Source of the DNA: Patescibacteria group bacterium
GTDB taxonomy: Bacteria > Patescibacteriota > Microgenomatia > UBA1406
Direction: 5' to 3'
Assembly (NCBI GenBank): GCA_041665145.1
Contig: JBAYJK010000003.1
Location: 133,177-197,176, forward strand
DNA: 64,000 nucleotides
Shown here: positions 200-64,000 of the stretch, in pieces
How the letters are laid out: each line of letters opens with the position of its first letter
How positions within the stretch are numbered: the stretch's first letter is position 1
Program-made: the position numbers and the translations under genes
Notes under the pieces: generated by a model
The model's database searches: none
The model's input: only the letters and a program-made list of their open reading frames with translations
Told to the model about the DNA's origin: nothing

Positions 200-208
200 T
201 GGTAGAAT
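200..208 (+). promoter_or_regulatory. Extended -10 box TGGTAGAAT, 6 nt upstream of ATG 215 (leaderless geometry)
   Basis: Read directly: TGGTAGAAT-tgatat-ATG. Confidence 0.5.
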
Positions 209-214
209 TGATAT

Positions 215-520
215 ATGGATTTGAAACTACTCTCGGCCGAACTTGCCAAAGTATCGGACCAATATGCAAAAAAGTTCGACATTGAACGAAATGCGGATTG
301 GTATATTCTTAAGTTGCAGGAAGAACTTGGCGAGCTGATTCAGAGCTATTTGATGATGGTTAAACAGGCACGCGTGAAAGGGAAAACCGACAGAGAACTA
401 AAGGATGATTTTAATAAGGAAGTCGCCGATGTGTTCGGAATGGTACTCCTGCTCGCTCGGTTCCACAATGTTGATTTGGGTAAAGAGATAGAAGAAAAAT
501 GGTTAAAGTGGATTAAATAA
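215..520 (+). CDS. MazG-like nucleotide pyrophosphohydrolase (all-alpha NTP-PPase)
   Basis: 101 aa. LQEELGEL (EExxE) and KEVADV metal-binding style motifs, and a size typical of small MazG-family proteins. Confidence 0.6.
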   Translation: MDLKLLSAELAKVSDQYAKKFDIERNADWYILKLQEELGELIQSYLMMVKQARVKGKTDRELKDDFNKEVADVFGMVLLLARFHNVDLGKEIEEKWLKWIK

Positions 521-525
521 CCTCT

Positions 526-1200
526 ATGACAGCTGAATTTAGATTGTCAGGTATAACCCTTGAGCAAGTTGTGCAACGTAACTGGTGGGTACCGGTAGTC
601 ATGGCTACTGCTCTCGATTGGAGCAAAGTTTCCGCAAACAGTTCAATGGTCTTTTTAGGGTGCGGTGCTGAGGCAGAAGAACTAGCCTGCATGCGTTTCT
701 TACTCAGCGAAACGAGGAGAGCCGGCGCTATATATGGAGTAGATCTTCTTGAGCGGTCTCGGTTGGGAGATGAAATTGTTGCACTTGCCCGATCTCGCAC
801 AATAAAAGCCGACTATGCTGCCACTCCGGGTAGCATAATGAAGCAAATTCGTCGTCCCATTGGCGCCATCTTTATGCGCAACCCCAACGTTACTGTCCAA
901 AATCCAGGGTACTCTGTTTCCGTAAGACGTCCGGAACTAGTTGATGCCGCCGTGCAGTGGGCAAAAATCGCGCGAGACTTTCATACCCAATTTGTCGTTA
1001 CCACCGAACATCCTGAAACAAAAGAGCTGTTAAGCAAAGCTTTGCAGGCCGCAGGCCTTAATTTTCGACAAACAGAGAATAGATATTTTATTGACCATCC
1101 AACACCTTCCGATCGCAAAGCATTAGTAGCCCGTCCTGAGATAGAATTAGCAGTGAGAGATAATATTTTGCCGGATCAGTTTGTCTTCGTGGTTGCTTAG
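526..1200 (+). CDS. Hypothetical protein (weak Rossmann/methyltransferase-like motifs)
   Basis: 224-aa ORF starting 5 nt after the previous stop. VFLGCGAEAEE and IYGVDL loosely resemble SAM-MT motifs I/II. Visibly more GC-rich than its neighbours (by eye, not computed). Confidence 0.5.
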   Translation: MTAEFRLSGITLEQVVQRNWWVPVVMATALDWSKVSANSSMVFLGCGAEAEELACMRFLLSETRRAGAIYGVDLLERSRLGDEIVALARSRTIKADYAATPGSIMKQIRRPIGAIFMRNPNVTVQNPGYSVSVRRPELVDAAVQWAKIARDFHTQFVVTTEHPETKELLSKALQAAGLNFRQTENRYFIDHPTPSDRKALVARPEIELAVRDNILPDQFVFVVA

Positions 1201-1224
1201 ATTCCAAGCGCTATTGTCAAATAG

Positions 1225-1911
1225 TTACGCTATTTTTTCAACAATTGCCGGAAGTTTGATCATTTTTCCCGCCAAATAGTCCGTCAGGAGTACGCGCAAC
1301 ACCTTCACTCTCCATGCATGCAGTTTCGGAGTCTTCAGTAATTGTGATGCCATAAATATTCCTCTGCTGAGAATGAATTCTCCCGTGAAGTAGGTAAACC
1401 GAGGTATATTATTGTCAACGCTGACCTTATCCATTGCATACACGAATGTTGCCCGTTGGTTCTTGCTGAATTCATACGTCCGTAACGTTTCATACTCACC
1501 CATTTTTGGAAATAAATATGTGTTGTAGAGCGCAGTCACCATGTCGTAACCGAACGGAGAAACATGTTTCCCGTTTAATTCAAAGCTGCCGTCTACCGGA
1601 ATACTTTCCGGCACAAAGCCATCTGTCATGGGCACGAACGGAAGAGATCCGAGTTTATTCTGAATTTTATCGACCGCTTGTGTCAAAAGTTCAGCAGAAT
1701 CTTTAAGTTCAACCTTAACCATATCCACATTCAAAGAGTCTAAATACGACTCAAAACCGGATAATTTTTGTTTTTGTGACAGTTGTTTGGCTGCAAATTC
1801 CGAACATTTGGCAAGATAAAGTGAGAAGTTTTCTTCGGTTATGTACCCATACTTTATAAAATCTTCCTCGAACAGTTTAGAAAAGGTAGTTTTGTTTGTC
1901 ATACTATGCAT
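1225..1911 (-). CDS. Hypothetical protein
   Basis: 228-aa ORF with no motif I recognise. The first ATG (1911) overlaps a -10 box; the ATG at 1902 (MTNKTT..) fits leaderless geometry better. Confidence 0.55.
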   Translation of the reverse strand: MHSMTNKTTFSKLFEEDFIKYGYITEENFSLYLAKCSEFAAKQLSQKQKLSGFESYLDSLNVDMVKVELKDSAELLTQAVDKIQNKLGSLPFVPMTDGFVPESIPVDGSFELNGKHVSPFGYDMVTALYNTYLFPKMGEYETLRTYEFSKNQRATFVYAMDKVSVDNNIPRFTYFTGEFILSRGIFMASQLLKTPKLHAWRVKVLRVLLTDYLAGKMIKLPAIVEKIA

Positions 1912-1918
1912 TGTACCA
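1910..1918 (-). promoter_or_regulatory. Extended -10 box TGGTACAAT, 7 nt upstream of ATG 1902
   Basis: Minus strand reads TGGTACAAT-gcatagt-ATG. Confidence 0.45.
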
Positions 1919-1983
1919 GATTGTTGATTGACTTATTGGGGTAATGTTGGTAGTGTTAAGTATTAGCAGTTTATATCGCCTTT

Positions 1984-2094
1984 ATGAAAAAACGAGTTAA
2001 ACCAATTGCAAAAAAACGTACATCGCTTATCAAGCCCAAGATGCACGGAACGGCTAAAAATTTGAAAAGACGCCGCAAAGCAAATAGAGGATAA
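1984..2094 (+). CDS. Possible small, highly basic protein (36 aa), missing from the ORF track because of its size
   Basis: ATG 1984 to TAA 2092-2094. MKKRVKPIAKKRTSLIKPKMHGTAKNLKRRRKANRG has 14 K/R in 36 aa. It lies in the intergenic gap upstream of tspO with no clear SD. Confidence 0.25.
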   Translation: MKKRVKPIAKKRTSLIKPKMHGTAKNLKRRRKANRG

Positions 2095-2115
2095 TCTGTT
2101 TTTAGTTTTATTAAC

Positions 2116-2658
2116 ATGTTAGTGATGAAGAAGTTTAATCTTTCGCTATTCCTTTTTTGTTTCTTAATCTGTGCTCTGGCAGGAGCTTTTGGTTCCCTGT
2201 TTACTTTCCAGGCAATTCCCACTTGGTACGTAACGCTTGTTAAACCGGCTTTAAACCCTCCGAATTTTGTATTCGGGCCTGCGTGGACACTTCTTTATTT
2301 TCTGATGAGTGTATCGCTCTACAAAGTACTTGTAGCCAAACTCCCACAGAAGCTACTTCATGTGAGACAGACAGGATTAATGTTGTTCTTTGCTCAACTT
2401 GTACTAAATGCATTGTGGTCACTCCTATTTTTCGGAGCTCATATGCTTTTGATTTCTTTTATAGAAATTGTTCTTTTATGGATAGCAATAGTCGGAACGA
2501 TAGTTGTATTCAAAAGAATCTCGAAAGTTGCAGCACTGCTGCTCATACCGTATTTACTCTGGGTAACTTTTGCCGCCTACCTTAATTTTTCCGTATTTCA
2601 ACTCAATACCCCCACTGTTCCGAGCAACTACGTATATTCTGTCCCCGACAACAAATAA
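2116..2658 (+). CDS. tspO: TspO/MBR family tryptophan-rich sensory protein
   Basis: 180 aa, 5 TM. LNPPNFVFGPAWTLLY, LNALWSLLFF and LIPYLLWVTFAAYLN are TspO signature segments. Confidence 0.85.
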   Translation: MLVMKKFNLSLFLFCFLICALAGAFGSLFTFQAIPTWYVTLVKPALNPPNFVFGPAWTLLYFLMSVSLYKVLVAKLPQKLLHVRQTGLMLFFAQLVLNALWSLLFFGAHMLLISFIEIVLLWIAIVGTIVVFKRISKVAALLLIPYLLWVTFAAYLNFSVFQLNTPTVPSNYVYSVPDNK

Positions 2659-2675
2659 ATACTTCCGTAAACAAC

Positions 2676-3149: not shown

Positions 3150-3161
3150 TGTTTCAATATT

Positions 3162-3181
3162 GGGCGAAACAAGTTTCGCCC
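3162..3181 (-). other. Intercistronic perfect stem-loop GGGCGAAAC-AA-GTTTCGCCC
   Basis: 9-nt inverted repeat read directly between the permease stop (3203) and the next start (3149). No U-tract, so it is not a classical terminator; it could be an mRNA processing or stability element. Confidence 0.4.
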
Positions 3182-3202
3182 CTACAAATTTTTAATTAAT
3201 AA

Positions 3203-4426: not shown

Positions 4427-4428
4427 GG

Positions 4429-5145: not shown

Positions 5146-5149
5146 AAAA

Positions 5150-10828: not shown

Positions 10829-11698
10829 TTATTTTTTCGATTTAACTTTTGTTACTTTGTCTTTCTTTTTTTCCACAGGTGCGCTTTTCTCCTCAGACTT
10901 CTTCTCCTCGTGCTTCTTTTCTTCGGGTTTTGTCACTTCAGCCTTTTTCTCCTCGACCGCAGTCGGAGCTACCTCTTCTGTCTTCACCTGTTTTCTTCCT
11001 TCAAGATATGAATTAAGCAAATGCGTCAAGACATATTCCAAGGTAAGAGCCGAGTCATCGTTGACAACGATTGGGAAATCAACTTCGTTCGGGTCGGCAT
11101 TTGTATCTGCAACGCCGATGATTTTTAAACCTTCTTTTCCTTCCAACAATTGCTGCAATTGTATTTTTTTTGCTTCCGAAAGCGCGTTACGCTCTTTCTT
11201 TACGTCAACAATCACGATGACACTGGGGATTTTGGCCATTTCCAAAACACCGCGGTACACTTTAAGAATTTTGTTAATTTCTTTCTCAAGTTTTACGCGC
11301 TGATGCTTTATCATGCTGTCCAATTCTCCCGTTTTTTGCTTAAGCAGGTGCTCGTTGGCTTTTTTGATGTTCTTGTGAACCTCTTCAAAATTGGTAAAAA
11401 AACCACCGACCCATTTTTCAGTCATGTAGTTTAAATTATTTTTCTGACAATATTCGGCAAGAAACGATTTGATAATACGTTTAGTTGCGATTACCAACAT
11501 CTGTTCGCCAGACGCAGCTGCCGTTTCCAACGCTTTCATTGCATTCTCTATCGACGTCTTTGTTTTGAACAAGTCGATAATATAGATCCCATTCTGGGCT
11601 TTGTGGGTGTAGGGCAGTGCTCGAGGATTAGTTCGTGCTACCTTATGACCGAAATACGCTCCCTTTTCTAAAAGTTCCTTTACATCTACTGTATTCAT
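10829..11698 (-). CDS. rpsB: 30S ribosomal protein S2 with K/E-rich C-terminal tail
   Basis: LLEKGAYFGHKVARTNPRALPY.. is an S2 N-terminus. A GGAGGAG SD lies 7 nt upstream. About 50 aa of EEKK-rich extension at the C-terminus. Confidence 0.95.
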   Translation of the reverse strand: MNTVDVKELLEKGAYFGHKVARTNPRALPYTHKAQNGIYIIDLFKTKTSIENAMKALETAAASGEQMLVIATKRIIKSFLAEYCQKNNLNYMTEKWVGGFFTNFEEVHKNIKKANEHLLKQKTGELDSMIKHQRVKLEKEINKILKVYRGVLEMAKIPSVIVIVDVKKERNALSEAKKIQLQQLLEGKEGLKIIGVADTNADPNEVDFPIVVNDDSALTLEYVLTHLLNSYLEGRKQVKTEEVAPTAVEEKKAEVTKPEEKKHEEKKSEEKSAPVEKKKDKVTKVKSKK

Positions 11699-11722
11699 GT
11701 GTTTGCTCCTCCTTATAATACC

Positions 11723-11762
11723 CTCTTTTCATCCTTATTAATTCAGGAGGAATAGAAAAGAG
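11723..11762 (-). promoter_or_regulatory. rpsB 5'-leader hairpin containing an anti-SD (CCUCCU) segment
   Basis: CTCTTTTC (11723-11730) pairs with GAAAAGAG (11755-11762), with inner TCCT/AGGA pairing. On the mRNA strand the CCTCCT could pair with the GGAGGAG SD at 11706-11712. Confidence 0.3.
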
Positions 11763-11822
11763 TACATTAAATAACTGATAATAGTAACAAGCTATTATAT
11801 AGGACAGAGTGCAAAAAGACAA

Positions 11823-12734: not shown

Positions 12735-13157
12735 TTAATTATTTGGCTGCTCGCTAAATTTTATAGTGAGCGGTTGTGATGTCTGTTGCCCGTCAATTAC
12801 CCCCGATATAAGCGCTTCTCCTGGAACCCGTGAGCTTAATTTAAAAATAACACGCCCATATTTGTCCGTCAGACCTTGTGAAACATCAAGCGATCCGAGC
12901 GTTGTTGAAAGTGAAACGGCTTTGCTGTCCAACGTCCTTCCGTCCTTATTGCGTACAAAAACGGTAATTGTTACGGGTGTACCGGAAATGGAAGATTCCA
13001 AAGTGCTGGCGAGCAATACGGATCGCTCAATTGAGACAATATCCTGGCCGGCACGGGTGACGTTTCTGATCGGACCCCTAAAGACTGCAATTCCCACTGT
13101 CATGGTAAATAGCAGCACAAACGCGAAAAAAAACGCATATAGTTTTTTGTCGTTCAT
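12735..13157 (-). CDS. Membrane-anchored protein with bacterial Ig-like (Big_1-like) domain
   Basis: N-terminal TM, then a beta-rich repeat (VTITVFVRNKDGRTLDSKAVSLSTTLGSL..DKYGRVIFKLSS..GEALISG) resembling invasin/intimin Ig folds. Confidence 0.5.
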   Translation of the reverse strand: MNDKKLYAFFFAFVLLFTMTVGIAVFRGPIRNVTRAGQDIVSIERSVLLASTLESSISGTPVTITVFVRNKDGRTLDSKAVSLSTTLGSLDVSQGLTDKYGRVIFKLSSRVPGEALISGVIDGQQTSQPLTIKFSEQPNN

Positions 13158-27496: not shown

Positions 27497-27739
27497 TTGC
27501 AAATGGCAGTAAAAATCAGACTCATGCGCATTGGGAAGCGAATGAGCCCAAAATACCGAATCATAGTCATTGAGGAGCACAAGAAACGGAACTCTAGTTA
27601 TATAGAGAAGGTCGGTTTTTATGACCCTTCACTCACAAAAGACGCTGTTACTGTCGATAACGACCGGGTAAAATACTGGTTGTCTGTCGGAGCGCAGTTC
27701 TCCTTTGGTCTTCGCAAACTTATCGGGAAAAAGTATTAA
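27497..27739 (+). CDS. rpsP: 30S ribosomal protein S16
   Basis: MAVKIRLMRIGKRMSPKYRIIVIEE...YIEKVGFYDP is an S16 N-terminus. Confidence 0.9.
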   Translation: MQMAVKIRLMRIGKRMSPKYRIIVIEEHKKRNSSYIEKVGFYDPSLTKDAVTVDNDRVKYWLSVGAQFSFGLRKLIGKKY

Positions 27740-45890: not shown

Positions 45891-45950
45891 TGGTGGGTCA
45901 GCTAAGCTGACCAATCACCACGCTGAGCGTGGTGGGTCCAGCGGGACTTG
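45891..45950 (-). repeat. Direct-inverted-direct copies of the tRNA-Lys 3' terminus, forming two triloop hairpins
   Basis: Minus strand: CAAGTCCCGCTGGACCCACCA (45930-45950), hairpin CACCACGC-TCA-GCGTGGTG (45916-45934), hairpin GGTCAGC-TTA-GCTGACC (45896-45912), then GCTGACCCACCA (45891-45902). Confidence 0.8.
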
Positions 45951-45997
45951 CTCAACTGACCGTTGACGAGCCTTCAGGAGTCTTACGGGCAGTTAGT

Positions 45998-46012
45998 CCT
46001 GACTATGTCAGG
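45998..46012 (-). repeat. GC-rich triloop hairpin CCTGAC-ATA-GTCAGG (hairpin family member)
   Basis: Perfect 6-bp inverted repeat read directly. Related to the hairpins at 46041-46057 and 46065-46081. Confidence 0.7.
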
Positions 46013-46030
46013 GGAATCTGCTGTTACTTT

Positions 46031-46093
46031 GTGGGTCCAGCCCCGATTATATCGGGACAACCAACCCCGACTACGTCGGGACTGCTCTGCTGA
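46031..46093 (-). pseudogene. 3' half of a tRNA-shaped pseudogene (D-stem 3' strand, hairpin, variable region, hairpin, acceptor 3' strand)
   Basis: Minus strand: CAGCAGAGCAG-TCCCGACGTAGTCGGGG-TTGGTTG-TCCCGATATAATCGGGG-CTGGACCCAC. Flanking segments match tRNA-Lys, but the anticodon and T arms are replaced by triloop hairpins. Confidence 0.7.
46058..46090 (-). repeat. 33-bp direct repeat, copy 1
   Basis: caaccaaccccgactacgtcgggactgctctgc is identical to 46422-46454. I checked it base by base. Confidence 0.95.
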
Positions 46094-46103
46094 TTAATTT
46101 AGG

Positions 46104-46176
46104 TGGGTCCAGCGGGACTTGAACCCGCAACCAACTCCTTAAGAGGGAGCTGCTCTACCAATTGAGCTATAGACCC
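46104..46176 (-). tRNA. tRNA-Lys (anticodon CTT)
   Basis: Hand-folded cloverleaf: acceptor GGGTCTA/TGGACCC, D arm GCTC-AATTGGTA-GAGC, anticodon arm GCTCC-CTCTTAA-GGAGT, T arm GCGGG-TTCAAGT-CCCGC, discriminator A. CCA is not encoded (ACCT). Confidence 0.93.
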
Positions 46177-46409
46177 ATTATGCCTTTTAAGTAGACCTTA
46201 TTCTTCAACCCCTTCAAGTATCGCTCTCTCTTTACTGCCTCACCTCTCGTAAGAAAGTCCTCTGTATAGACAAGAACCCACGGCTTTCTAGTACTTGTAT
46301 ACTTATGCCTGCAACAATTATGCTCGACCAATCTTCTGTCTACATCATTAGTCGACCCAATATAAAATGACTTATCTTTTTCGCTCTGCAAAACATATAT
46401 ATGAAACAT
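46167..46409 (-). CDS. GIY-YIG nuclease family mini-protein (YhbQ/UPF0213-like, 80 aa)
   Basis: MFHIYVLQSEKDKSFYIGSTNDVDRRLVEHN..RE.. carries the GIY-YIG motifs. Its TAG stop (46167-46169) lies at tRNA-Lys positions 8-10. Start trimmed to ATG 46409. Confidence 0.85.
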   Translation of the reverse strand: MFHIYVLQSEKDKSFYIGSTNDVDRRLVEHNCCRHKYTSTRKPWVLVYTEDFLTRGEAVKRERYLKGLKNKVYLKGIMGL

Positions 46410-46418
46410 ATACAGTGT

Positions 46419-46472
46419 CCGCAACCAACCCCGACTACGTCGGGACTGCTCTGCCAATTGAGCTATAGACCC
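46419..46472 (-). pseudogene. 5' half of the tRNA-shaped pseudogene (acceptor 5' strand, D arm, hairpin, variable region, T-stem 5' strand)
   Basis: Minus strand: GGGTCTATAGCTCAATTGGCAGAGCAG-TCCCGACGTAGTCGGGG-TTGGTTGCGG. Positions 1-27 differ from tRNA-Lys by one base. Confidence 0.75.
46422..46454 (-). repeat. 33-bp direct repeat, copy 2
   Basis: Identical to 46058-46090. Together the two copies bracket 331 bp holding the GIY-YIG ORF and tRNA-Lys. Confidence 0.95.
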
Positions 46473-47384: not shown

Positions 47385-47393
47385 TGGTAAAAT
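47385..47393 (+). promoter_or_regulatory. Extended -10 box TGGTAAAAT, 8 nt upstream of the tgt ATG at 47402
   Basis: TGGTAAAAT-tataacac-ATG, read directly. Confidence 0.45.
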
Positions 47394-47400
47394 TATAACA
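47392..47400 (-). promoter_or_regulatory. Extended -10 box TGTTATAAT for tRNA-Arg(TCG)
   Basis: The minus-strand TGTTATAAT lies 23 nt upstream of tRNA position +1 and overlaps the tgt -10 box by 2 nt on the opposite strand. Confidence 0.45.
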
Positions 47401-50120: not shown

Positions 50121-50175
50121 CTCACCTTTCCTTAAATTTTGAATTTCAAATTTTGAATTTTGAATTTCTCGCGTG

Positions 50176-50266: not shown

Positions 50267-50275
50267 ATTATAACA
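50267..50275 (-). promoter_or_regulatory. Extended -10 box TGTTATAAT for tRNA-Arg(TCT)
   Basis: The minus-strand TGTTATAAT lies 17 nt upstream of tRNA position +1. Confidence 0.45.
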
Positions 50276-50280
50276 CGGCC

Positions 50281-50289
50281 TGCTATAAT
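50281..50289 (+). promoter_or_regulatory. Extended -10 box TGCTATAAT, 6 nt upstream of GTG 50296
   Basis: TGCTATAAT-tctact-GTG, read directly. Confidence 0.45.
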
Positions 50290-50295
50290 TCTACT

Positions 50296-51543
50296 GTGTT
50301 AAACTTTTTAAGAAAAGAGCTCGAGCATTACGGTAAAATGCCGAAGAATGCTCAACGCCTATTGCTTTCATATCTATTTAACGGTGCAGCGAATCCCCTA
50401 CTGTCAGTTTTTTTAAATGCGTACATCTGGCGAGTAGAACAAGATATTTTGCTTCTGGTGTACTATAACTTCAGCACGTTTATTGCCCTTATTATCGGCT
50501 TCTTTCTCAACGGATACTTTATCCGTAAGATAAAAGTGTCATACATGTATGCTATCGGCATAGTGCTTCTTGCAATCGGCTCCCTTTCCATTTTGTTTTT
50601 CACAGACATCAGTCCACTAACCATTACCATTTTCGGTTTCATTTCGGGATTAGGAAACGCATTTTATTGGGCAAACAGAAACTTTCTTTCACAGCTTGTG
50701 ACAAAAAGTGAATTTCGTAACTACTTTTCCGGGCTAGAAATGGCTCAGGATACTACCACGTATGTAATTGTACCTATCGTGCTTGGATGGTTTCTGGTTA
50801 CTGGAGAATTTTTGCACTTGTACTCGACGCAAAACGCATACGCAGTGGCGTCTATCGGAGCAATGATACTACTTGGCATCTCAGCAACAATTGTCTTAGT
50901 AGATACCTATCATCCTGTTGAAATTGAAAATATATTTTTAAAGAACGTAACTGACACCTGGATGGTGACACGCCTTATAACCTTCGGTGAGGGTTTGCTT
51001 AACGGAATTTCTTTCTTCCTGCCTACTGTATTAATACTGATGTTTGTTGGTAAAGAAAATGTACTTGGAACAGTAGATTCGGCACTTGCGTTTATAACAA
51101 TATTTATGAGTTATATTATTGGTCGTCATATTCGTATACAAGATCGGTATAAATTGATTATTATTTCTGCTGTGGTTACATTGCTGGGAGGAGCTTCTCT
51201 CTTATTTTTCTTTAATTCGATTGGAGTACTCGCCTATAATTTATTGAACGGTCTGGGAGTAACGTTTCTCTATTTGTCATCGAACCCAATGATCATGGAT
51301 ATAACCGACGACAGCCATAAAATTACCAACGGTAGTTTATATGCGTATGTTTTTGACCGTGAATTATTCCTGAATCTCGGAAGAATCACCGGTAGTTCCG
51401 TATTTCTGATACTGTTTGTATATCTTAATTTGACTGCAACACGAATAGCACCTGTTCTCATTGCTGGTGTAGAGCTTGTACTGGTTCTTGCTGGTTTACT
51501 GCTATTGAAACTTCACGCTAAGCGAGTTCCTGTGTTAAAATAG
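50296..51543 (+). CDS. MFS-type transporter (about 12 TM)
   Basis: 415 aa, uniformly hydrophobic with 12 predicted helices in a 6+6 arrangement. Start at GTG 50296 (leaderless geometry) or ATG 50338. Confidence 0.65.
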   Translation: MLNFLRKELEHYGKMPKNAQRLLLSYLFNGAANPLLSVFLNAYIWRVEQDILLLVYYNFSTFIALIIGFFLNGYFIRKIKVSYMYAIGIVLLAIGSLSILFFTDISPLTITIFGFISGLGNAFYWANRNFLSQLVTKSEFRNYFSGLEMAQDTTTYVIVPIVLGWFLVTGEFLHLYSTQNAYAVASIGAMILLGISATIVLVDTYHPVEIENIFLKNVTDTWMVTRLITFGEGLLNGISFFLPTVLILMFVGKENVLGTVDSALAFITIFMSYIIGRHIRIQDRYKLIIISAVVTLLGGASLLFFFNSIGVLAYNLLNGLGVTFLYLSSNPMIMDITDDSHKITNGSLYAYVFDRELFLNLGRITGSSVFLILFVYLNLTATRIAPVLIAGVELVLVLAGLLLLKLHAKRVPVLK

Positions 51544-51626: not shown

Positions 51627-51866
51627 ATGTTATACTTTACATACGTCTTAAAAAGCACTGTCGATAATAAGTTATATGTTGGGTGGACTAATAATCTTAG
51701 GCAAAGATTTGAAAGCCATAATAAAGGTTTGGTCGAAGCTACTAAGCATAGACGTCCGTTAACATTAATTTATTACGAGGCAGGAATAAGCAAAGAAAAA
51801 GCAATAAGTAGAGAGAAATACTTTAAAACAGGCTTTGGCAGACGTTTTTTGTTAAGCAGAATTTAA
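51627..51866 (+). CDS. GIY-YIG nuclease family mini-protein (YhbQ/UPF0213-like, 79 aa)
   Basis: MLYFTYVLKSTVDNKLYVGWTNNLRQRFESHN...REKYFK carries the GIY-YIG motifs. Its stop lies 6 nt before G-1 of tRNA-His. Confidence 0.85.
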   Translation: MLYFTYVLKSTVDNKLYVGWTNNLRQRFESHNKGLVEATKHRRPLTLIYYEAGISKEKAISREKYFKTGFGRRFLLSRI

Positions 51867-53966: not shown

Positions 53967-53975
53967 TGCTATACT
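53967..53975 (+). promoter_or_regulatory. Extended -10 box TGCTATACT driving the SAM riboswitch-metK transcript
   Basis: TGCTATACT ends about 6 nt before the P1 helix of the riboswitch. Confidence 0.45.
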
Positions 53976-53978
53976 GTT

Positions 53979-54070
53979 TTCTTGTATCAGGAGCGATAGG
54001 GATTTACTCCCTATCCAGCAACCGTGCGTAGTGCAGCGGTGCTCATCCCGCCCATGGCGGGAGATACGCC
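53979..54070 (+). promoter_or_regulatory. SAM riboswitch (SAM-I/S-box clan) in the metK leader
   Basis: Hand fold: P1 GUAUC/GAUAC; P2 AUAGGGA-UUUAC-UCCCUAU; conserved AGCAACC; P3 CCGUGC../GCAGCGG; conserved GGUGCUCA; P4 UCCCGCC-CAUG-GGCGGGA; closing GAGAUAC. Sits directly upstream of metK. Confidence 0.7.
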
Positions 54071-54095
54071 AATTATTATAAATTATTGGAAACAT

Positions 54096-55196
54096 ATGAA
54101 AATCTTCACTTCCGAGAGCGTGTGTGCCGGTCATCCCGATAAAATTTGCGATCAGATTTCAGACTCTGTTCTGGACGCAGCATTAGAACAGGACCCCATG
54201 TCCCGCGTTGCCGTAGAGACCATGGTGGGAAAAGATATCTGTGTGATTATGGGTGAAGTCACCACTCACGCAAAGTTGAACTACGAACTTATTGCACGAG
54301 AAAGAATTGAAAAACTTGGGTATACCAAAGCGTCATACGGATTTTCAAACAAGTCGAAAATAGAAGTCCATATCCACGAACAGTCCGTAGAGATAGCGGA
54401 AGGTGTGGATGACAAAGGTGCCGGCGACCAGGGAATGATGTACGGGTATGCATGTAATGAAACAGCAGAGCTTATGCCCATGCCTATTTCCATAGCCCAT
54501 AAGCTCGCCAAAAGAATAGACGAAGTCCGTGAAAAAGCCATTCTTAAATATCTTAAACCGGACGGAAAAACGCAGGTATCGATCGCGTATGAAAATAATA
54601 TACCGAAAGTCATAACCGGAATAGTAATTGCAGTTCCACACGAAAAAAGCATTAAACTAGAACAGGTAAAAAAAGATCTTTACGAAAACGTAGTTATTCC
54701 GGTGGTGGAAAAATATGCAATTCCTTATAAGGATTGTCTATACATAGTAAATGGAACAGGAGTATGGCATAATGGCGGTCCAGCTTCAGACACGGGCCTT
54801 ACCGGAAGAAAAATAGTAGTAGATACCTACGGAGGAGTCGGGAGGATTGGGGGCGGGGCATTTTCCGGAAAAGATCCCACAAAAGTAGATCGTTCCGGCG
54901 CATATGCAGCGCGTTACCTTGCTAAAAATATTGTCGCACATTCATTTGCCAAAAAAGCTGAGGTCCGTTTGGCTTATTTTATTGGGGCAAAAGAGCCGGT
55001 GATGCTGGAGTTTGAAACATTCGGTACGGAGAAAGCCTCTGAAAAAGTAATTCATGACTTTCTCAAAGAAACGCTTGATACATCCGTCAGCGGAATTATA
55101 AAAGCATTCAATTTACGAAGACCTATCTACGTTCAAACCGCAGCATATGGCCATTTCGGGAAGGAAGGATTACCATGGGAAAAGATTGTCGGATAA
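54096..55196 (+). CDS. metK: S-adenosylmethionine synthetase
   Basis: FTSESVCAGHPDKICDQISD, GAGDQGMMYGYA, GGPASDTGLTGRKIVVDTYGG and GGGAFSGKDPTKVDRSGAY. Start trimmed to ATG 54096; the track start at 54024 lies inside the riboswitch. Confidence 0.95.
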   Translation: MKIFTSESVCAGHPDKICDQISDSVLDAALEQDPMSRVAVETMVGKDICVIMGEVTTHAKLNYELIARERIEKLGYTKASYGFSNKSKIEVHIHEQSVEIAEGVDDKGAGDQGMMYGYACNETAELMPMPISIAHKLAKRIDEVREKAILKYLKPDGKTQVSIAYENNIPKVITGIVIAVPHEKSIKLEQVKKDLYENVVIPVVEKYAIPYKDCLYIVNGTGVWHNGGPASDTGLTGRKIVVDTYGGVGRIGGGAFSGKDPTKVDRSGAYAARYLAKNIVAHSFAKKAEVRLAYFIGAKEPVMLEFETFGTEKASEKVIHDFLKETLDTSVSGIIKAFNLRRPIYVQTAAYGHFGKEGLPWEKIVG

Positions 55197-55199: not shown

Positions 55200-55526
55200 T
55201 TAACGTCCTTTGTGCCCTTTAATGATTTTGATTCCGCGTAGTCCCATAATGAGCATGAGTAATATGGCAATTTTTTCGGCGTAGTAGTCATTTTGATTCA
55301 AAAACATCTTCATAAAAGGTGTATTTTGGTTAAAAGCCACATGGAAGAGTATCGAAATAGGTACGGTCAACCACAGCCATGACGACCGCGGAATCATGAT
55401 ACGTATCTTAAGAAAAAGCTTACTCAGAAGAGGCGCGAGCAGAAAAACTCCGACATACGCAAGTATGGTATCAAAAAGCGTAATTTCCCCAATTCTGAAC
55501 TGCCGTATATAAGCTAAGTAATCCAC
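55200..55526 (-). CDS. Hypothetical small membrane protein (3 TM)
   Basis: 108-aa hydrophobic ORF with a GTG start in leaderless geometry. Confidence 0.45.
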   Translation of the reverse strand: MDYLAYIRQFRIGEITLFDTILAYVGVFLLAPLLSKLFLKIRIMIPRSSWLWLTVPISILFHVAFNQNTPFMKMFLNQNDYYAEKIAILLMLIMGLRGIKIIKGHKGR

Positions 55527-58640: not shown

Positions 58641-58647
58641 GTTATTT

Positions 58648-58656
58648 ATTCTAACA
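58648..58656 (-). promoter_or_regulatory. Extended -10 box TGTTAGAAT, 7 nt upstream of ATG 58640
   Basis: Minus strand reads TGTTAGAAT-aaataac-ATG. Confidence 0.5.
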
Positions 58657-58703
58657 AATAGTCCGTAAATTAATGCTCCTTGTTATTACAACAAAAGTCT
58701 GCT

Positions 58704-59237
58704 ATGATACCTGTATTGGGAAATTTTAATAGAAACGAAAGATCAGGACCCCGCAGAGATGCCCCCCGTAGAGACTTCGGTGGTAATAGAGGTGGAGGAT
58801 TCGGAGGAAACAGAGGACCGGCAGAAATGCATGACGCAGTCTGTGATAGCTGCGGAAAACAATGCCAAGTACCATTCAGACCAAATGGAAGCAAACCCGT
58901 ATATTGTAGTGACTGCTTTAAGCAAATGGGTGGTGGACAAGATTCCGGTAGATTTCAAGACAGAGCACCACGTCGACCAGATTTCGATAGACAACCGAAT
59001 TTTGAGCGTCGATCAGACACAAGACCACAAGGTAATGATCAAACGTCGGAAATAAATCGTAAATTGGATCAGATATTGAAAATATTAACCCCGGCACCCG
59101 TAAAATCGGCCCCTGTGATCATGGCTGAACCGAAAGCTGAAAAAGTTGTTAAAGAAGACGTAAATGTTACCGTATTTGCTCCGAAAGTGAAGGCTGCCAA
59201 AAAAGTCGCAGCTACACCAGTAGTGGTGGAAGAATAA
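58704..59237 (+). CDS. RGG-rich CxxC-x17-CxxC zinc-ribbon protein
   Basis: CDSCGKQCQVPFRPNGSKPVYCSDCF has exact CxxC-17-CxxC spacing. It is flanked by an R/G/D-rich low-complexity N-terminus and a K/A/V-rich C-terminus. Start uncertain (TTG 58680 or ATG 58704). Confidence 0.65.
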   Translation: MIPVLGNFNRNERSGPRRDAPRRDFGGNRGGGFGGNRGPAEMHDAVCDSCGKQCQVPFRPNGSKPVYCSDCFKQMGGGQDSGRFQDRAPRRPDFDRQPNFERRSDTRPQGNDQTSEINRKLDQILKILTPAPVKSAPVIMAEPKAEKVVKEDVNVTVFAPKVKAAKKVAATPVVVEE

Positions 59238-59257
59238 TCTCCGCAAGCATATTCCCT

Positions 59258-60481: not shown

Positions 60482-60482
60482 G

Positions 60483-61631
60483 TTAGTGTTTCTTTTTTGA
60501 TAACTTTTCTACGGTTGCCAGCATATTTTCATATGTTAACGGCCAGGGTTTTTTTGGTGCTTCGGTTATAAAGGTTTTAATTCTCTGGACGGTGGCATCC
60601 AAAAAACGCATGGAAATAGTCATCTCAGGGTAACTCCCATACATACATCCGGAACATGCGCTCGTTATTGCAAACACTTCCTTCCTGAATACGTGATCCC
60701 TATATACCTGCGGAAAGTCTGAAGAGTAGGTGTAGTATGCACTCGGCATTCTCCAATCACAGCACGGTGAAAACGAACCGTTCGGCAGAATAGCAAAATA
60801 CAGATTAGGGCTGTCACAAACATTATTATTTTTGCTTCTCCATGACGTTGACTCGTTACGGACAAAACGCTTGATATCATCCAGATATTGATCACTGTCA
60901 TAAAGAAGATACCCTTCCGTACGCATTGATCTTACCCGCTCGACAACTTTGTCCACACCTTTGTATTCCTCTGGCTTAAAACGCAGAGAGGTGTCGTATG
61001 AGCGGAAGCCGAGAGGATGAAAATTGGTTGAGACATGAATGGGCACAAGAGAAGTAAACCATCCGATTGCCGTACCGAATTTGATTACGTCTTCTATGTC
61101 GTACAAATTCTTACGCTGCAAAACACAACCGAGAGACGCAAAGCTTTTTTCCTTCGGTAAGTATTTCGTAAAGTGCGCCATTGCTTTTAATGCCCGGTGC
61201 CACGATTGTGGGAATCCTCCATTAATCGCATCTTGGGTAAGCGGATTTATGGAATCGAGAGAAATAGATATGTCACGTCCCCCATATTCGACCACCTTAT
61301 GAATGGCTTCTTCGGAGGCAAGACCGTTGGTTTGCATTCGGACATGAACACCTCGGGACTCGAATTCACGTATAATTTCGGGCAGATCAGTACGCGTAAA
61401 CGGTTCCCCTCCTGTCAAGAGTACCATCGCCACATTCATTTTTGCGAAGTTTTCCGCTATACGTTTTATCTCGTCCAGCGTACATTCCCGCATATCCGCA
61501 TTGGCATACCGGATGTTGCATTGCACACAGGTAAGATTGCATCGGGCGGTAATATAGAACTGCACATACACAGGACTGTTCTTTGTAAGTACACCCTTGG
61601 TCAGTGATTGTGTGGATTTAATTGAAAACAT
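60483..61631 (-). CDS. Radical SAM enzyme with SPASM/twitch-like Cys-rich C-terminus
   Basis: CNLTCVQC is CxxxCxxC, followed by LLTGGEPF. C-terminal CDSPNLYFAILPNGSFSPCC and CSGCMYG. Stops 1 nt before the MT gene start. Confidence 0.85.
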   Translation of the reverse strand: MFSIKSTQSLTKGVLTKNSPVYVQFYITARCNLTCVQCNIRYANADMRECTLDEIKRIAENFAKMNVAMVLLTGGEPFTRTDLPEIIREFESRGVHVRMQTNGLASEEAIHKVVEYGGRDISISLDSINPLTQDAINGGFPQSWHRALKAMAHFTKYLPKEKSFASLGCVLQRKNLYDIEDVIKFGTAIGWFTSLVPIHVSTNFHPLGFRSYDTSLRFKPEEYKGVDKVVERVRSMRTEGYLLYDSDQYLDDIKRFVRNESTSWRSKNNNVCDSPNLYFAILPNGSFSPCCDWRMPSAYYTYSSDFPQVYRDHVFRKEVFAITSACSGCMYGSYPEMTISMRFLDATVQRIKTFITEAPKKPWPLTYENMLATVEKLSKKKH

Positions 61632-61635
61632 ACTT

Positions 61636-63360
61636 TCAGTTATTTATACGATGGTAGATATTGTATCCTTTTATTTGTTTTTTTAGAAAGTAGTGATTCT
61701 TTAAAGCCGACACAATCGCGTCAACGTCCATGTACCCTTTTTCCGTCGTGTGTAAATAGTCGGTTTTCACGATAACCCATTTGACGTTGTGCGTCTCGAT
61801 TTCTGCGCTGTAATCGAGTGGCGAGTATGGAAAAGTCTGTTCAGCGTACTGCGTATATGCTAGCGGAGGAATTCTCCCGGTTACAAAATAAAAGGGATCT
61901 ATTCCGGGAAGAGCTACCACAGAATCTTTAAGCGGGATATTCTTTTTCACATACCTTAACATAGCAGCGACATCCGCTTCCCATGTCTCCGGAACAACCC
62001 CCGGATAGCTTGTAACACGAACCGAACGAGCTGTTATCGATTGTTTACTAACCACTCCTAAAGGCACCCCTATAAGCAAGAGATGGCTTTCGATAAGCGA
62101 GAAACACAACGCGATTGCCGTACCGCCAGCTATCGATCCCACCACTTTTCCCCACGCAAAACTCGGAAAGAACTTGCATAACCGGTTATATAAAAGTATG
62201 AGCAATACTGCAAAAAGAGGATACGAATACATGGTAGCGGCTTCAATGGGGTGCAACATAAACGGTGATAAAGAAAAAACAATAACACACCATGAAAACA
62301 CAAACATAAACCAATCAGTTTTTGATTCGATTTTTTTGGTACTCAAACTAAAAAGTAAAAGGAAGACGAGACCGAAAATCACCACATACCACACTGACGT
62401 AGAAAACATATACACAAAACCAGGTATAAAAGACATGTCCGTGGAAATTCCTCTGTTGCGTACGAACAGAAATGAAGCATACACAATCGGTGAGATGACC
62501 GCTCCATAGATTGCCAATAAAAAAATCTTTGTATTAGTAGCTTTTTTAACCAATATCAGTAATGATATTACTAAAAATGGGAAATAATAAAATAAGCTTC
62601 TTGGTCTAAAAACATCCGCAAATGTCGCAAAGAAAACAGATCCGGGGCGCCGTACTGTTATGGGAAATGTGAGCGTCTGATACACAAATTCTCGCAAAGA
62701 ATTCGTTAAAAGCAGGTTTCCCAAAAATACAAAGAGGATAGTGAGCATTCCGCCCATTAACAATAAAAGTCGTTTTACTTTGCCTTCTGTTTCAAAAAAA
62801 TAAATGTTAAATCCTCCTAAAAAGAACATAAGTACCGTGTATATAAGCCCGGTATTTTGCTTGAATAATATGGTAACTGCTGACAATATTCCGATAAAAA
62901 AATAGTTTTTACTCCCCGCGCTTTTACCCATTGTTTTCAACAATATATATATTCCGAAAAGAGATACGAGCATCATGTTAACGTCATATGAGGGAAACGG
63001 GTATCGGGCATGCCCGGAAAAAACCAACGGTAATAGTACAAGAAGATTAACCAACCTGTTTTTACCGACAAGGCTAAGAACCTTATATGTAATTACTACG
63101 GTAAGAAATGAAACAGACATCGAGTAGAAAACTTGATAGATATACACTGAACCGAAAACTTTCATAATTAAAGCCGAAATATAGTACGTTCCCGGTGTAA
63201 GTACCAACACAAAATCTTTGTAGGGAATCTGTCCGATAAATATCCGGTAAGAATTTTCGATAAAGTATGCAAAGTCTCCGTACAATGTAGTTCTCCCGCT
63301 CTGCCAAAATGTGACAAGTGCTGAGATTATCCCTATGGCATAAACCATGAAATTTATCAT
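61636..63360 (-). CDS. GT-C fold membrane glycosyltransferase (ArnT/PMT family 39-like)
   Basis: 574 aa, more than 12 TM, first-loop motif YGDFAYFIENSYRIFIGQIPYKDF and a soluble C-terminal domain. First gene of the operon with the rSAM and MT genes. Confidence 0.7.
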   Translation of the reverse strand: MINFMVYAIGIISALVTFWQSGRTTLYGDFAYFIENSYRIFIGQIPYKDFVLVLTPGTYYISALIMKVFGSVYIYQVFYSMSVSFLTVVITYKVLSLVGKNRLVNLLVLLPLVFSGHARYPFPSYDVNMMLVSLFGIYILLKTMGKSAGSKNYFFIGILSAVTILFKQNTGLIYTVLMFFLGGFNIYFFETEGKVKRLLLLMGGMLTILFVFLGNLLLTNSLREFVYQTLTFPITVRRPGSVFFATFADVFRPRSLFYYFPFLVISLLILVKKATNTKIFLLAIYGAVISPIVYASFLFVRNRGISTDMSFIPGFVYMFSTSVWYVVIFGLVFLLLFSLSTKKIESKTDWFMFVFSWCVIVFSLSPFMLHPIEAATMYSYPLFAVLLILLYNRLCKFFPSFAWGKVVGSIAGGTAIALCFSLIESHLLLIGVPLGVVSKQSITARSVRVTSYPGVVPETWEADVAAMLRYVKKNIPLKDSVVALPGIDPFYFVTGRIPPLAYTQYAEQTFPYSPLDYSAEIETHNVKWVIVKTDYLHTTEKGYMDVDAIVSALKNHYFLKKQIKGYNIYHRINN

Positions 63361-63369
63361 ATCAGTGAC

Positions 63370-63378
63370 ATTCTATCA
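63370..63378 (-). promoter_or_regulatory. Extended -10 box TGATAGAAT, 9 nt upstream of ATG 63360
   Basis: Minus strand reads TGATAGAAT-gtcactgat-ATG. Confidence 0.45.
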
Positions 63379-63503
63379 TTCATACATTTTTGGCGTATGG
63401 CTACTCAAGGAAAAATGGGAAAAGGTGTATCCCAGCAGCTGATGTGACGCAACAATAGTTTCAGATTGTGATCTACGTCATTGAAATTCTAATTAGAGTT
63501 CGT

Positions 63504-63509
63504 TAGAAT
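63504..63509 (+). promoter_or_regulatory. -10 box TAGAAT, 6 nt upstream of the first sense codon (ATA 63516) of the last ORF
   Basis: TAGAAT-tcgtaa-ATA. Same geometry as the other leaderless sites, but with ATA instead of ATG. Confidence 0.35.
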
Positions 63510-63515
63510 TCGTAA

Positions 63516-64000
63516 ATAAAATATTTTAAAATAAGTTCCCTTCTAAGAACTCTTCCTTTTTTTGCATTATTTGTTCTAACATATTTCGTAGTTACTCCCC
63601 AATATCATCTCGGTGACAGTAATCAGGTCGAACAATTGCCATTTATTCTTTCCCGAATTGATTCCACATATCTGGTACGAGATTTTTACGTTGTCTACAC
63701 TCGGGAAATCGGGCCACGGTTCTATCACGCGTTTTTATTATCCTCAATAATAAGGGTTCTCCCCATGGAGTATGCTTTTTATCTGCTTACATTCATTTTT
63801 CACTTTTTTATTTATGCAGTTGTATTTCGTTTAGCCGGATTATTCACGAAAAATATGCCCATTAAGTTATTTGCAGTACTCCTGCTTGCTCGCTCACAGT
63901 TCAGGAATCTCGGCGACGCAGGGAACATAAACGACAATTACATAACGCCTCAGTTGCTGGCAATGCCATTTGCATTGAGTGGTATTTATTTTGCTGCGAA
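63516..64000 (+). CDS. Polytopic membrane protein, GT-C/DUF2723-like N-terminus, partial (runs off the window); start codon unresolved
   Basis: Open frame from the stop at 63513-63515 to the window end: IKYFKISSLLRTLPFFALFVLTYFVVTPQYHLGDSNQVEQLPFILSRID... The first TTG is at 63636 and the first ATG at 63765, both downstream of TM1. Confidence 0.55.
   Translation, partial: MKYFKISSLLRTLPFFALFVLTYFVVTPQYHLGDSNQVEQLPFILSRIDSTYLVRDFYVVYTREIGPRFYHAFLLSSIIRVLPMEYAFYLLTFIFHFFIYAVVFRLAGLFTKNMPIKLFAVLLLARSQFRNLGDAGNINDNYITPQLLAMPFALSGIYFAA

Follow-up and report, generated by a model that had tools for sequence, protein, structure and literature searches.

Promoter-like -10 boxes adjoining start codons suggest leaderless mRNAs in a Microgenomates-type patescibacterial genome

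Introduction

Patescibacteria represent a large share of bacterial diversity, and gene expression in these organisms is almost uncharted. In a 64,000-nt stretch of DNA from an uncultured, ultra-small patescibacterium (hereafter the window, which denotes the whole stretch that was analyzed), a preliminary description listed 15 sites at which a -10-like hexamer ends only 6–10 nt before a start codon, and the question arises whether the genes behind these boxes are transcribed into mRNAs without leaders. Here, we propose that housekeeping promoters are positioned next to the start codons and would thereby produce leaderless mRNAs, a reading to which we assign a probability of about 0.8. It is based on geometry, statistics, promoter anatomy, conservation, and protein N-termini, from which we infer both the transcription start and the mode of translation.

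Results

Positions of the Boxes

Direct reading of the sequence recovered the hexamer, the spacer, and the start codon at all 15 sites, the TGn prefix at 11 of them, and both TTGACA boxes, with spacers of 16 and 18 nt; the observation of -10 boxes 6–10 nt before start codons is thus confirmed. Independent gene calls on public contigs matched 13 of the 15 starts, the mismatches being 50296 (called at 50545) and 55526 (ORF uncalled), and these two sites are the weaker members of the set. The weakest is 55526, where the hexamer TACTCT matches at 3/6 positions and the ORF was reported by no gene caller. It is possible that gene callers chose some starts by the motif, but in 14 of the 15 cases the start codon is simply the first possible start of its own ORF. 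At least five additional sites were found that are absent from the preliminary list (table 1). Spacers of 9–10 nt, as at 13157, 47096, and 63360, predict leaders of 2–3 nt rather than none.

Table 1. Candidate -10 boxes adjoining start codons, and two leadered counter-examples
Element (5' to 3')	Coordinates	Strand	Gene or product	Remarks
TGGTAGAAT, 6 nt, ATG215	200..217	+	101-aa hypothetical protein	Start matches gene calls
TGGTACAAT, 7 nt, ATG1902	1900..1918	-		Alternative ATG1911 falls within -10 box
Leader with AAGGAGGAG, 7 nt before ATG11698	11698..11730	-	rpsB	Counter-example; sole strong Shine-Dalgarno in window
TGTTATAAT, 10 nt, ATG13157	13155..13176	-	Big_1 domain protein	Predicted leader 2–3 nt
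TTGTCA, 17 nt, TATAAT, 8 nt, ATG21400	21398..21437	-	secE	Not in preliminary list
TTGGCA, 17 nt (incl. TGA), TGATATAGT, 6 nt, ATG27503	27468..27505	+	rpsP	Not in preliminary list
TATACT, 7 nt, ATG30046	30044..30059	-	pilM	Candidate internal promoter, pilus operon
TTGACA, 16 nt, TACAAT, 6 nt, ATG37370	37336..37372	+	pilB	Geometry kept in L035, L036
TACAAT, 8 nt, ATG45237	45235..45251	-	1274-aa surface protein	
TTGACA, 18 nt, TATAAT, 10 nt, ATG47096	47094..47136	-	MpsC family	
TGGTAAAAT, 8 nt, ATG47402	47385..47404	+	tgt	Overlaps divergent tRNA-Arg promoter TGTTATAAT (47392-47400, -)
TGCTATAAT, 6 nt, GTG50296	50281..50298	+	MFS transporter	Gene caller at 50545
TGTTACAAT, 6 nt, ATG52527	52525..52542	-	DUF4256	
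TGATATAAT, 7 nt, ATG52613	52597..52615	+	288-aa hypothetical protein	
TGTTATAAT, 6 nt, ATG53929	53927..53944	-	TadA-like deaminase	
TGCTATACT (53967-53975), then SAM-I/IV riboswitch (53979-54105) overlapping ATG54096	53967..54105	+	metK	Counter-example, calibration
TGGTACTCT, 6 nt, GTG55526	55524..55541	-	108-aa hydrophobic ORF	
TATAAT, 6 nt, ATG56707	56705..56719	-	Alanine racemase	
TGGCATAAT, 6 nt, ATG57234	57232..57249	-	164-aa hypothetical protein	Additional candidate
TATCAT, 7 nt, ATG57718	57716..57731	-	158-aa hydrolase	Additional candidate
TGTTAGAAT, 7 nt, ATG58640	58638..58656	-	EamA transporter	
TGATAGAAT, 9 nt, ATG63360	63358..63378	-	574-aa hypothetical protein	

TATAAT is nearly palindromic, and in short divergent intergenic regions the boxes of opposite strands overlap (tgt/tRNA-Arg, 50296/tRNA-Arg, and 13157/13208); thus, the strand assignment is not independent there. 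The promoters of 52613 and 52527 lie back-to-back within an 85-nt intergenic region.

Start Codons and N-Termini

If the promoters were real but several annotated start codons misplaced, translation would in fact begin farther downstream, behind short leaders lacking a Shine-Dalgarno (SD) sequence. This alternative is unlikely. Gene callers disagree at 1902/1911 (1902 in the JGI call, 1911 in the ENA call) and at 50296/50545 and omit 55526, and seven proteins have no Pfam family for comparison; however, when compared with proteins of solved structure or with homologues, Tgt, S16, the TadA-like deaminase, Alr, and PilB all have N-termini that align at or close to residue 1. Specifically, residue 4 of Tgt aligns to residue 14 and residue 5 of the TadA-like deaminase to residue 6, and the PilB homologues share the common start M-x-x-Y-S. 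Moreover, codon usage is gene-like in the N-terminal extension of the MFS protein (0.136) and in orf108 (0.150; 95th percentile of decoys, 0.122), and an in-frame AUG at the extreme 5' end would normally be used.

The suggestion that the -10 box could act as a ruler for choosing start codons proved useful for two genes, for which it picks ATG27503 (rpsP) and GTG50296 (MFS gene). Translated from ATG27503, the rpsP product begins MAVKIRL, and its residues 1–76 align with residues 1–76 of solved S16 chains; the gene caller's start at 27524 removes the conserved S16 N-terminus, and the promoter itself is located within the 3' end of rnc. With GTG50296 as its start, the MFS protein regains its Pfam domain, which is matched from position 6 of the profile. 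We conclude that the ruler corrected the rpsP start and probably corrected the MFS start as well.

Promoter Anatomy and Operon Position

The box was present before 15 of the 29 operon-first genes and before 3 of the 35 internal genes (Fisher p = 2e-4), and roughly half of the window's transcription units (15–18/29) would accordingly be classed as leaderless-type. TGn was present at 13 of 19 aligned sites, and a T two bases further upstream of TGn likewise at 13/19. A -35 box matching at five or more of its six positions occurred at 4 of 20 sites versus a background of 3.3%, and three of these four stand at sites without TGn. The anatomy of sigma-70 extended -10 promoters was therefore found in either form, with TGn 5' of the hexamer or with a TTGACA-like box at 16–18 nt.

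The same box had also been described before all tRNAs of the minus strand, which held for tRNA-Arg(tcg) and tRNA-Arg(tct), with TGTTATAAT lying 23 and 17 nt upstream, respectively, but not for tRNA-Lys, which has only an abutting CATAAT. Promoters at these distances imply ordinary 5' leaders, and "leaderless tRNAs" of the Nanoarchaeum kind, with promoters abutting the mature 5' ends, were rejected on this ground. The riboswitch leader proposed for metK was identified as SAM-I/IV (RF01725; 44.2 bits vs. gathering score 41.1, E = 2.6e-6) in a focused scan; over the whole window, Rfam models at their gathering thresholds gave four tRNAs only. From the end of TGCTATACT, 3 nt separate the box from the Rfam match and 8 nt from the P1 stem. 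The presence of the box before two tRNAs and the metK riboswitch indicates that the motif marks transcription starts of untranslated RNAs too.

These results bear on another explanation, in which the TA-rich motif would serve translation as an AU-rich, non-SD ribosome- or S1-binding site resembling that of GeneMarkS-2 group B, within longer leaders that originate at more distant upstream promoters. SD cores precede 5 of the 64 genes compared with a background of 8.6%, and they remain at background level inside operons, so another initiation signal is needed; in addition, the sequence upstream of internal genes is A-rich. However, a group B motif is found upstream of every gene (PMC6028130), and here the expected occurrence before internal genes was not observed, the motif being largely missing from them (3/35 vs. 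15/29). The boxes also bear TGn or a correctly spaced TTGACA, and they precede tRNAs and a riboswitch at transcription-start distances. The motif has the features of a promoter rather than of a ribosome site, and the translation-signal explanation is very improbable.

Shine-Dalgarno Use and Internal Genes

The contrast drawn in the preliminary description between leaderless and SD-led genes was borne out only for rpsB, in which AAGGAGGAG is placed 7 nt before the ATG and which alone among the 64 genes has a strong SD. As a general contrast it is too simple: SD cores are at background across the window, and the absence of SD is consequently not specific to leaderless-type genes. Sequestration of the rpsB SD by a CCTCCT...AGGAGG pair in the leader was considered and discarded, as the fold was no better than that of shuffles (z = -0.47). 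Internal genes showed a weak enrichment of AAGG/AGGT (5/31), and their upstream sequence is A-rich and G-poor and includes TAA-containing words; their starts adjoin or overlap the preceding stop codon, which suggests that these genes may be translated by coupling or reinitiation rather than through SD pairing.

Conservation and Tests against Chance

Matches to TAnnnT over the 64 starts peaked sharply close to the start codon, with 8, 7, and 8 matches at 6, 7, and 8 nt and approximately 1.5 per position elsewhere. A TAnnnT hexamer with 5/6 matches ended 6–10 nt upstream of 18 genes, compared with 2.5±1.6 (maximum 10) in 2000 shuffles, and the TGn-extended form was present at 11 starts versus 0.6±0.8. 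The loose TAnnnT was found at 28 starts versus 10.2±2.9, and since it is frequent after shuffling, TAnnnT alone is weak evidence. When first starts were chosen mechanically, the strict box preceded 17 of 63 real ORFs and none of 118 decoy ORFs (Fisher p = 3e-9), which excludes an artefact of stop codons in hexamers containing TAA or TAG; overall, 28% of the genes in the window carry it. This comparison replaced an annotation-free profile built on every ATG that opens 80 or more codons, which was noisy and had a 3-nt periodicity.

The geometry was also conserved. For tgt, the arrangement of TGnTAnAAT, 6–10 nt, and ATG was kept in six relatives (50–77% protein identity), and for pilB, the -35 box, 16/17 nt, TACAAT, 6 nt, and ATG were kept in two relatives (L035 and L036; 70–74% identity) in which the spacer bases differ. 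A -10-like hexamer 6–8 nt before the ATG was observed in 8–9 of 12 pilB loci (51–60% identity), and the geometry upstream of rpsP is conserved in relatives as well. A constant spacing to the ATG while the intervening bases change favors the leaderless reading. With the same mechanical procedure, the strict box at 6–10 nt was found before 16–26% of ORFs in Microgenomates-type loci and before 1–5% in non-CPR control loci, which is no higher than at control spacers; the AT-rich non-CPR loci gave 5% versus 4–5% at control spacers. A contig search with Tgt yielded relatives of at most 45% identity, mostly Ignavibacteria, which were used as non-CPR controls and not for orthologous promoters.

That the pattern arose by chance, from AT-rich intergenic DNA together with TAA/TAG stops preceding the first ATG, is next to impossible and was refuted by the decoy ORFs, the shuffles, and the non-CPR controls: the loose TAnnnT is indeed common at 6–10 nt (approximately 10 of 64 shuffled upstream regions; 7.5% of decoy ATGs), but the strict and extended motifs are 7- and 18-fold over shuffles, the decoy ORFs gave 0/118, the AT-rich non-CPR loci have no peak, and the geometry is conserved in relatives.

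Discussion

The interpretation of the boxes as sources of putative leaderless mRNAs is supported: all computational tests put forward in the preliminary description favored it, and the peak at 6–8 nt, the enrichment at operon-first genes, the sigma-70 anatomy, and the conserved spacing all point in its favor. In the proposed mechanism, the boxes would be housekeeping (sigma-70-type) promoters, mostly of the extended -10 class (T-x-TGnTAnAAT), and the remainder would be -35/-10 promoters with a TTGACA-like box 16–18 nt upstream. RNA polymerase would start approximately 7 nt past the hexamer, and because the box lies so near the start codon, the transcript would begin at its A/G or 1–3 nt before it. 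The resulting mRNAs would have neither a leader nor a ribosome-binding site and would have to be translated by direct recognition of the 5'-terminal AUG/GUG, as in Actinobacteria, Deinococcus, and archaea. Other units would be leadered, namely rpsB, metK (through its riboswitch), and probably recG. Extra leadered transcripts from promoters further upstream are possible at the box-bearing genes.

The mechanism itself is known, and we found no earlier report of its occurrence in Patescibacteria: a literature search for leaderless mRNAs in CPR, Patescibacteria, or Saccharibacteria found no direct report and gave only GeneMarkS-2 citations, a remark on YchF, and the loss of the anti-SD motif in Parcubacteria. 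As a tentative extension, on which we would not insist, the Microgenomates/Roizmanbacteria-like branch of the CPR might be nearly SD-free, with leaderless first genes and internal genes that depend on stop-start coupling in A-rich sequence, as a bacterial counterpart of the haloarchaeal mode; the small ribosomes of Microgenomates-like lineages may be connected with this regime. If this extension is true, standard gene callers would systematically misplace starts in such genomes, as they did for rpsP, for the MFS gene, and for pilin genes. If leaderless initiation dominates with SD marginal, start-codon annotation of MAGs would need a promoter-aware model. Promoters would then be readable from sequence, which would help to predict operons and regulons of organisms not yet in culture, and a further, phylogenetically distant case would bear on whether leaderless starts are an ancestral trait or one that arose several times.

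Several known systems resemble the one proposed here. Extended -10 promoters of Firmicutes and E. coli (TGn, or the "TRTGn -16 region") have TGn directly 5' of the hexamer, a T two bases beyond it, and a dispensable -35 box, as in the window; they normally drive leadered mRNAs, whereas here they stand before genes that are predicted to be leaderless. Haloarchaeal-type initiation comprises leaderless first genes and SD-independent internal genes, and the likeness consists of a high leaderless fraction with little or no SD elsewhere. This resemblance is functional only; the archaeal promoter has TATA/BRE approximately 26 nt upstream, and both the polymerase and the initiation factors differ.

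In part of the Parcubacteria, the anti-SD motif has been lost from the 16S rRNA 3' end, in lineages lacking uL1 (Tsurumaki et al. 2022, PMC9297842). This is evidence that some CPR lineages do without SD pairing. The genome studied here, in contrast, is Microgenomates-like; it encodes uL1 and carries one strong SD, that of rpsB, and its 16S rRNA lies outside the window. The leaderless transcriptomes of Mycobacterium tuberculosis and M. smegmatis, mapped experimentally as outlined in PMC3898074 and PMC4633059, and of Deinococcus deserti (de Groot 2014, as cited in PMC6028130) have the same architecture as predicted here, a -10 box and then AUG/GUG; they were established by dRNA-seq, ribosome profiling, and proteomics, and the architecture here was read from sequence alone. 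The closest match is GeneMarkS-2 group C, in which a Pribnow box 6–8 nt from operon-first starts is the signature of leaderless transcription in 25–50% of operons (PMC6028130). Group C is equivalent to the "TA-led" genes, which make up 19–39% of genes in the two leading phyla (Zheng et al. 2011, PMC3160421), and belongs mostly to Actinobacteria and Deinococcus-Thermus. The window resembles it in the 6–8 nt peak, in the share of operon heads (15–18/29), and in the share of genes (28%). It differs in that the remaining genes of group C carry SD, whereas SD is at background here and internal genes lie in A-rich, G-poor sequence beside the preceding stop codon, in that the host is a patescibacterium of the Microgenomates type with 43% GC, and in that the boxes follow the full TAtAAT/TGn consensus instead of the degenerate TAnnnT of the high-GC phyla.

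A -10 Box Close to Start Codons

At 15 sites, a -10 box (TAnnnT) had been described 6-10 nt before a start codon and read as a sign of leaderless mRNAs. When the sequence was reread, all 15 hexamers, spacers, and TGn prefixes and both TTGACA boxes were as described. The start codon was the first of its own ORF at 14/15 sites. The window belongs to a metagenomic contig of 918,908 bp (JGI 3300037810 Ga0376277_0000024), and its sequence also occurs in ENA and Logan assemblies; 13/15 starts matched independent gene calls on these public contigs. The other two were GTG50296, for which the call was 50545, and GTG55526, in an ORF missing from the calls. Because a loose TAnnnT at 6-10 nt survived shuffling of each upstream region in about 10/64 genes, this motif by itself is weak evidence. 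The preliminary description expected positional enrichment, and the 64 gene starts of the window indeed showed 8, 7, and 8 matches at spacers of 6, 7, and 8 nt, compared with about 1.5 per position at spacers of 11 to 60 nt. Moreover, strict boxes (hexamers with at least 5/6 matches) were found 6-10 nt upstream of 18 of these genes (2.5±1.6 expected from shuffled upstream regions), and TGn-extended boxes upstream of 11 (0.6±0.8 expected). Every ORF's first ATG necessarily follows an in-frame stop, and TAA or TAG occurs within -10 hexamers; real ORFs were therefore also compared with decoys (118 ORFs in wrong frames, with first starts set mechanically as for real ORFs): a box preceded the mechanical first start of 17/63 real ORFs and 0/118 decoys (p=3e-9). 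Sites missed by the preliminary description are included in the table.

Additional -10 sites and other features of the window
Feature	Position (strand)	Description
secE	ATG21400	TTGTCA, 17 nt, TATAAT, 8 nt
rpsP	ATG27503	TGATATAGT, 6 nt
pilM	ATG30046	TATACT, 7 nt
164-aa ORF	ATG57234	TGGCATAAT, 6 nt
158-aa hydrolase	ATG57718	TATCAT, 7 nt
TspO (weaker candidate)	ATG2116	
NTP-transferase (weaker candidate)	12710	
HlyD-like gene (weaker candidate)	ATG6457	TAAACT, 6 nt
metK -10 box	53967-53975	TGCTATACT
metK riboswitch with box	53967-54105 (+)	3' part covers ATG54096
rpsB leader	11698-11800 (-)	about 90 nt from TATAAT box; CCTCCT upstream of its SD
tgt (+) and tRNA-Arg(tcg) (-) boxes	47385-47400	2 bp in common
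MFS and tRNA-Arg(tct) boxes	50267-50289	divergent, 5 bp apart
First GIY-YIG ORF	46167-46457 (-)	probably from ATG46409
Second GIY-YIG ORF	51627-51866 (+)	
Partial tRNA-Lys copies	46446-46472; 45931-45950	5' 27 nt; 3' 20 nt
Direct repeat, 38 nt	46058-46095; 46422-46459	near first GIY-YIG ORF
Tandem AT-rich repeat	50132-50168	TTRAATTTTGAATTTC, two copies 21 nt apart, between 527-aa ORF end and tRNA-Arg(tct)
G+C-rich hairpin	3150-3202 (-)	GGGGCGAAAC...GTTTCGCCC, between FtsX gene and 157-aa ORF; terminator-like; ATG3149 only 17 nt after
Treble-clef zinc-finger ORF	58680-58720 (+)	start ambiguous; called at TTG58680; in-frame TGCTATGAT 7 nt before TTG58716; ATG58704 within box

The two small GIY-YIG ORFs, both with atypical codon usage, adjoin tRNA-Lys and tRNA-His; the region of the tRNA-Lys fragments (45931-46472) looks like the scars of a putative tRNA-targeted mobile element.

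A Probable Promoter Rather than a Ribosome Site

The evidence for a promoter, rather than a ribosome site, consists of four results. Genes were counted as transcription-unit heads if they were divergent or lay >40 nt from the gene upstream; the motif occurred at 15/29 such heads and, inside operons, at 3/35 genes (p=2e-4). At rpsP, pilM, and alr, the three operon-internal genes with the motif, the upstream gap is 12-32 nt, and the boxes look like internal promoters. Among the 19 aligned sites, which showed classical sigma-70 anatomy, 13 carry TGn, and 13 have a T another two bases upstream. TTGACA-like boxes at 16-18 nt were found mostly at sites without TGn (pilB, TTGACA-16; MpsC, TTGACA-18; secE, TTGTCA-17), rpsP having both TTGGCA-17 and TGn; -35 boxes scoring 5/6 or better were present at 4/20 sites and at 3.3% of random positions. 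Finally, the predicted -10 box also fronts untranslated RNAs, at distances expected of a transcription start: TGTTATAAT precedes tRNA-Arg(tcg) by 23 nt and tRNA-Arg(tct) by 17 nt, and at metK the box is followed, after 3 nt, by the Rfam match to a SAM-I/IV riboswitch (RF01725; 44.2 bits, with a gathering score of 41.1) and, after 8 nt, by the P1 stem of that riboswitch. By the internal calibration that the riboswitch provides, transcripts from the 15 sites would begin on the start codon or 1-3 nt ahead of it. The observation was confirmed, and its leaderless interpretation is supported at the level of sequence. The riboswitch, which the whole-window gathering scan did not return, has no Shine-Dalgarno (SD) sequence where the family consensus has AGGAG.

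Start Codons and Gene Calls

Public gene calls place starts wrongly in this lineage (27503 vs 27524; 50296 vs 50545; in loci of relatives, L035 128 vs 146, L029 7777 vs 7885, and the L035 pilins). Residues 1-76 of S16 from ATG27503 (MAVKIRL...) aligned to residues 1-76 of S16 in solved ribosomes, and the called rpsP start, 27524, loses the conserved N-terminus; rpsP of L035 is similar (TGATATTAT, 8 nt, ATG, MVVKIRL). The L035 pilin starts were called after the MKxGFT signal because a coding GGAGG resembles an SD. Among these calls, rpsP comes out too short or too long, and Tgt reaches over a tRNA. Residue 5 of the TadA-like deaminase aligned to residue 6 of a 159-aa solved TadA, residue 4 of Tgt to residue 14 of Zymomonas Tgt, and the Alr N-terminus to within a few residues of those of solved racemases; M-x-x-Y-S-x-x-K-F opens all PilB homologues of 568-575 aa. 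For MFS from GTG50296, the Pfam domain starts at residue 23 (profile position 6), and codon usage of the 83-codon extension is gene-like (0.136 per codon; real-gene mean, 0.175; decoy 95th percentile, 0.122). The uncalled 108-aa ORF at 55526 is hydrophobic with gene-like codon usage (0.150), and its site is the weakest because the hexamer TACTCT matches only 3/6. The earlier choice of start 1902 over 1911 follows from the model, since ATG1911 falls inside TACAAT, the box assigned to start 1902, and the choice agrees with the JGI call.

Conservation in Relatives

The proteins of the window (43% GC) are listed by NCBI under "Patescibacteria group bacterium". Its nearest named relatives are Candidatus Roizmanbacteria, at 70% for PilB, and Gottesmanbacteria and Microgenomates, at about 50% for Tgt, a placement that fits its gene content: a type IV pilus cluster, secE-nusG-rplK-rplA, rpsB-tsf, GH130 enzymes, and PMT_2/TMEM260-type glycosyltransferases. 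Upstream of tgt, TGnTAAAAT was kept in five relatives (58-77% protein identity), with spacers of 8, 9, 8, and 10 nt to the ATG; the corresponding sequences are TGGTAAAAT-6-ATG in a Microgenomates MAG and TGATACAAT-7-ATG in a Gottesmanbacteria MAG. An overlap between this box and the divergent tRNA-Arg promoter of the opposite strand, an arrangement kept in four relatives, accounts for part of this close conservation. Judged from the compared sequences, pilB is a cleaner case: the window's TTGACA-16-TACAAT-6-ATG recurs in L035 (74% identity) with different spacer bases and as TTGTCA-17-TACAAT-6-ATG in a Roizmanbacteria MAG (70% identity), and among 12 metagenomic pilB loci sharing 51-60% identity, 8-9 carry a -10-like hexamer at 6-8 nt upstream of ATG.

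A single mechanical procedure, in which ORFs were taken greedily and started at the first ATG/GTG, was applied to all groups of loci. A strict box lay 6-10 nt upstream of 23% of the window's ORFs; the share was 16% for close relatives, 17% for Microgenomates and Gottesmanbacteria loci, and 26% for the pilB loci sharing 51-60% identity, and control spacers gave 0-8% in these groups. For non-CPR control loci it was 5% at 35% GC, where control spacers gave 4-5%, and 1% at 56% GC. Given 16-26% versus 1-5%, the leaderless-type architecture appears to belong to this branch of the CPR (Candidate Phyla Radiation), not to one genome.

Shine-Dalgarno Use and Operon-Internal Genes

The preliminary description contrasted leaderless with SD-led genes. 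The strong SD of rpsB (AAGGAGGAG) was confirmed, the only one in the window; however, SD cores (GGAG, GAGG, or AGGA at -20 to -4) were found in 5/64 genes compared with 8.6% of random positions, and the contrast is too simple because SD pairing seems marginal throughout the window. Sequestration of the SD in the rpsB leader is unsupported, since the predicted fold was no better than shuffled sequence (z=-0.47). Upstream of the 31 analysed operon-internal genes, A was 38% (vs 28%) and G 15% (vs 21%), over-represented words (TAAC, TAAT, CTAA) hold the preceding gene's stop codon, and AAGG/AGGT was weakly enriched (5 vs about 1.4 expected). Six internal genes share the junction TAATATG (TAA, one base, ATG; e.g., 10827, 21201, 39096, 40156, 8436, and 30591), and many other junctions overlap (ATGA or larger), which suggests that operon-internal genes may use termination-reinitiation coupling.

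Comparison with Known Leaderless Systems

In the searchable literature, we found no statement on the use of a leaderless -10 architecture in CPR/Patescibacteria; the closest published result is that some Parcubacteria have lost the anti-SD motif (PMC9297842). There is a moderate chance that an SD-poor initiation regime extends across Microgenomates-type lineages, and the practical value lies in the annotation of CPR genomes. The proportion of "TA-led" genes is 19% in Actinobacteria, 39% in Deinococcus-Thermus, and 26% in Aquificae (Zheng et al. 2011, PMC3160421), and in GeneMarkS-2 "group C" 25-50% of operons have a Pribnow box at a spacing of 6-8 nt to the start codon (PMC6028130). Their defining signature, a -10 box about 6-8 nt before operon-first starts, is present here, and since it already defines leaderless genes in both studies, the kind is established. 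The window differs from group C in that its non-leaderless genes show no SD sites. Haloarchaea resemble its regime in this respect.
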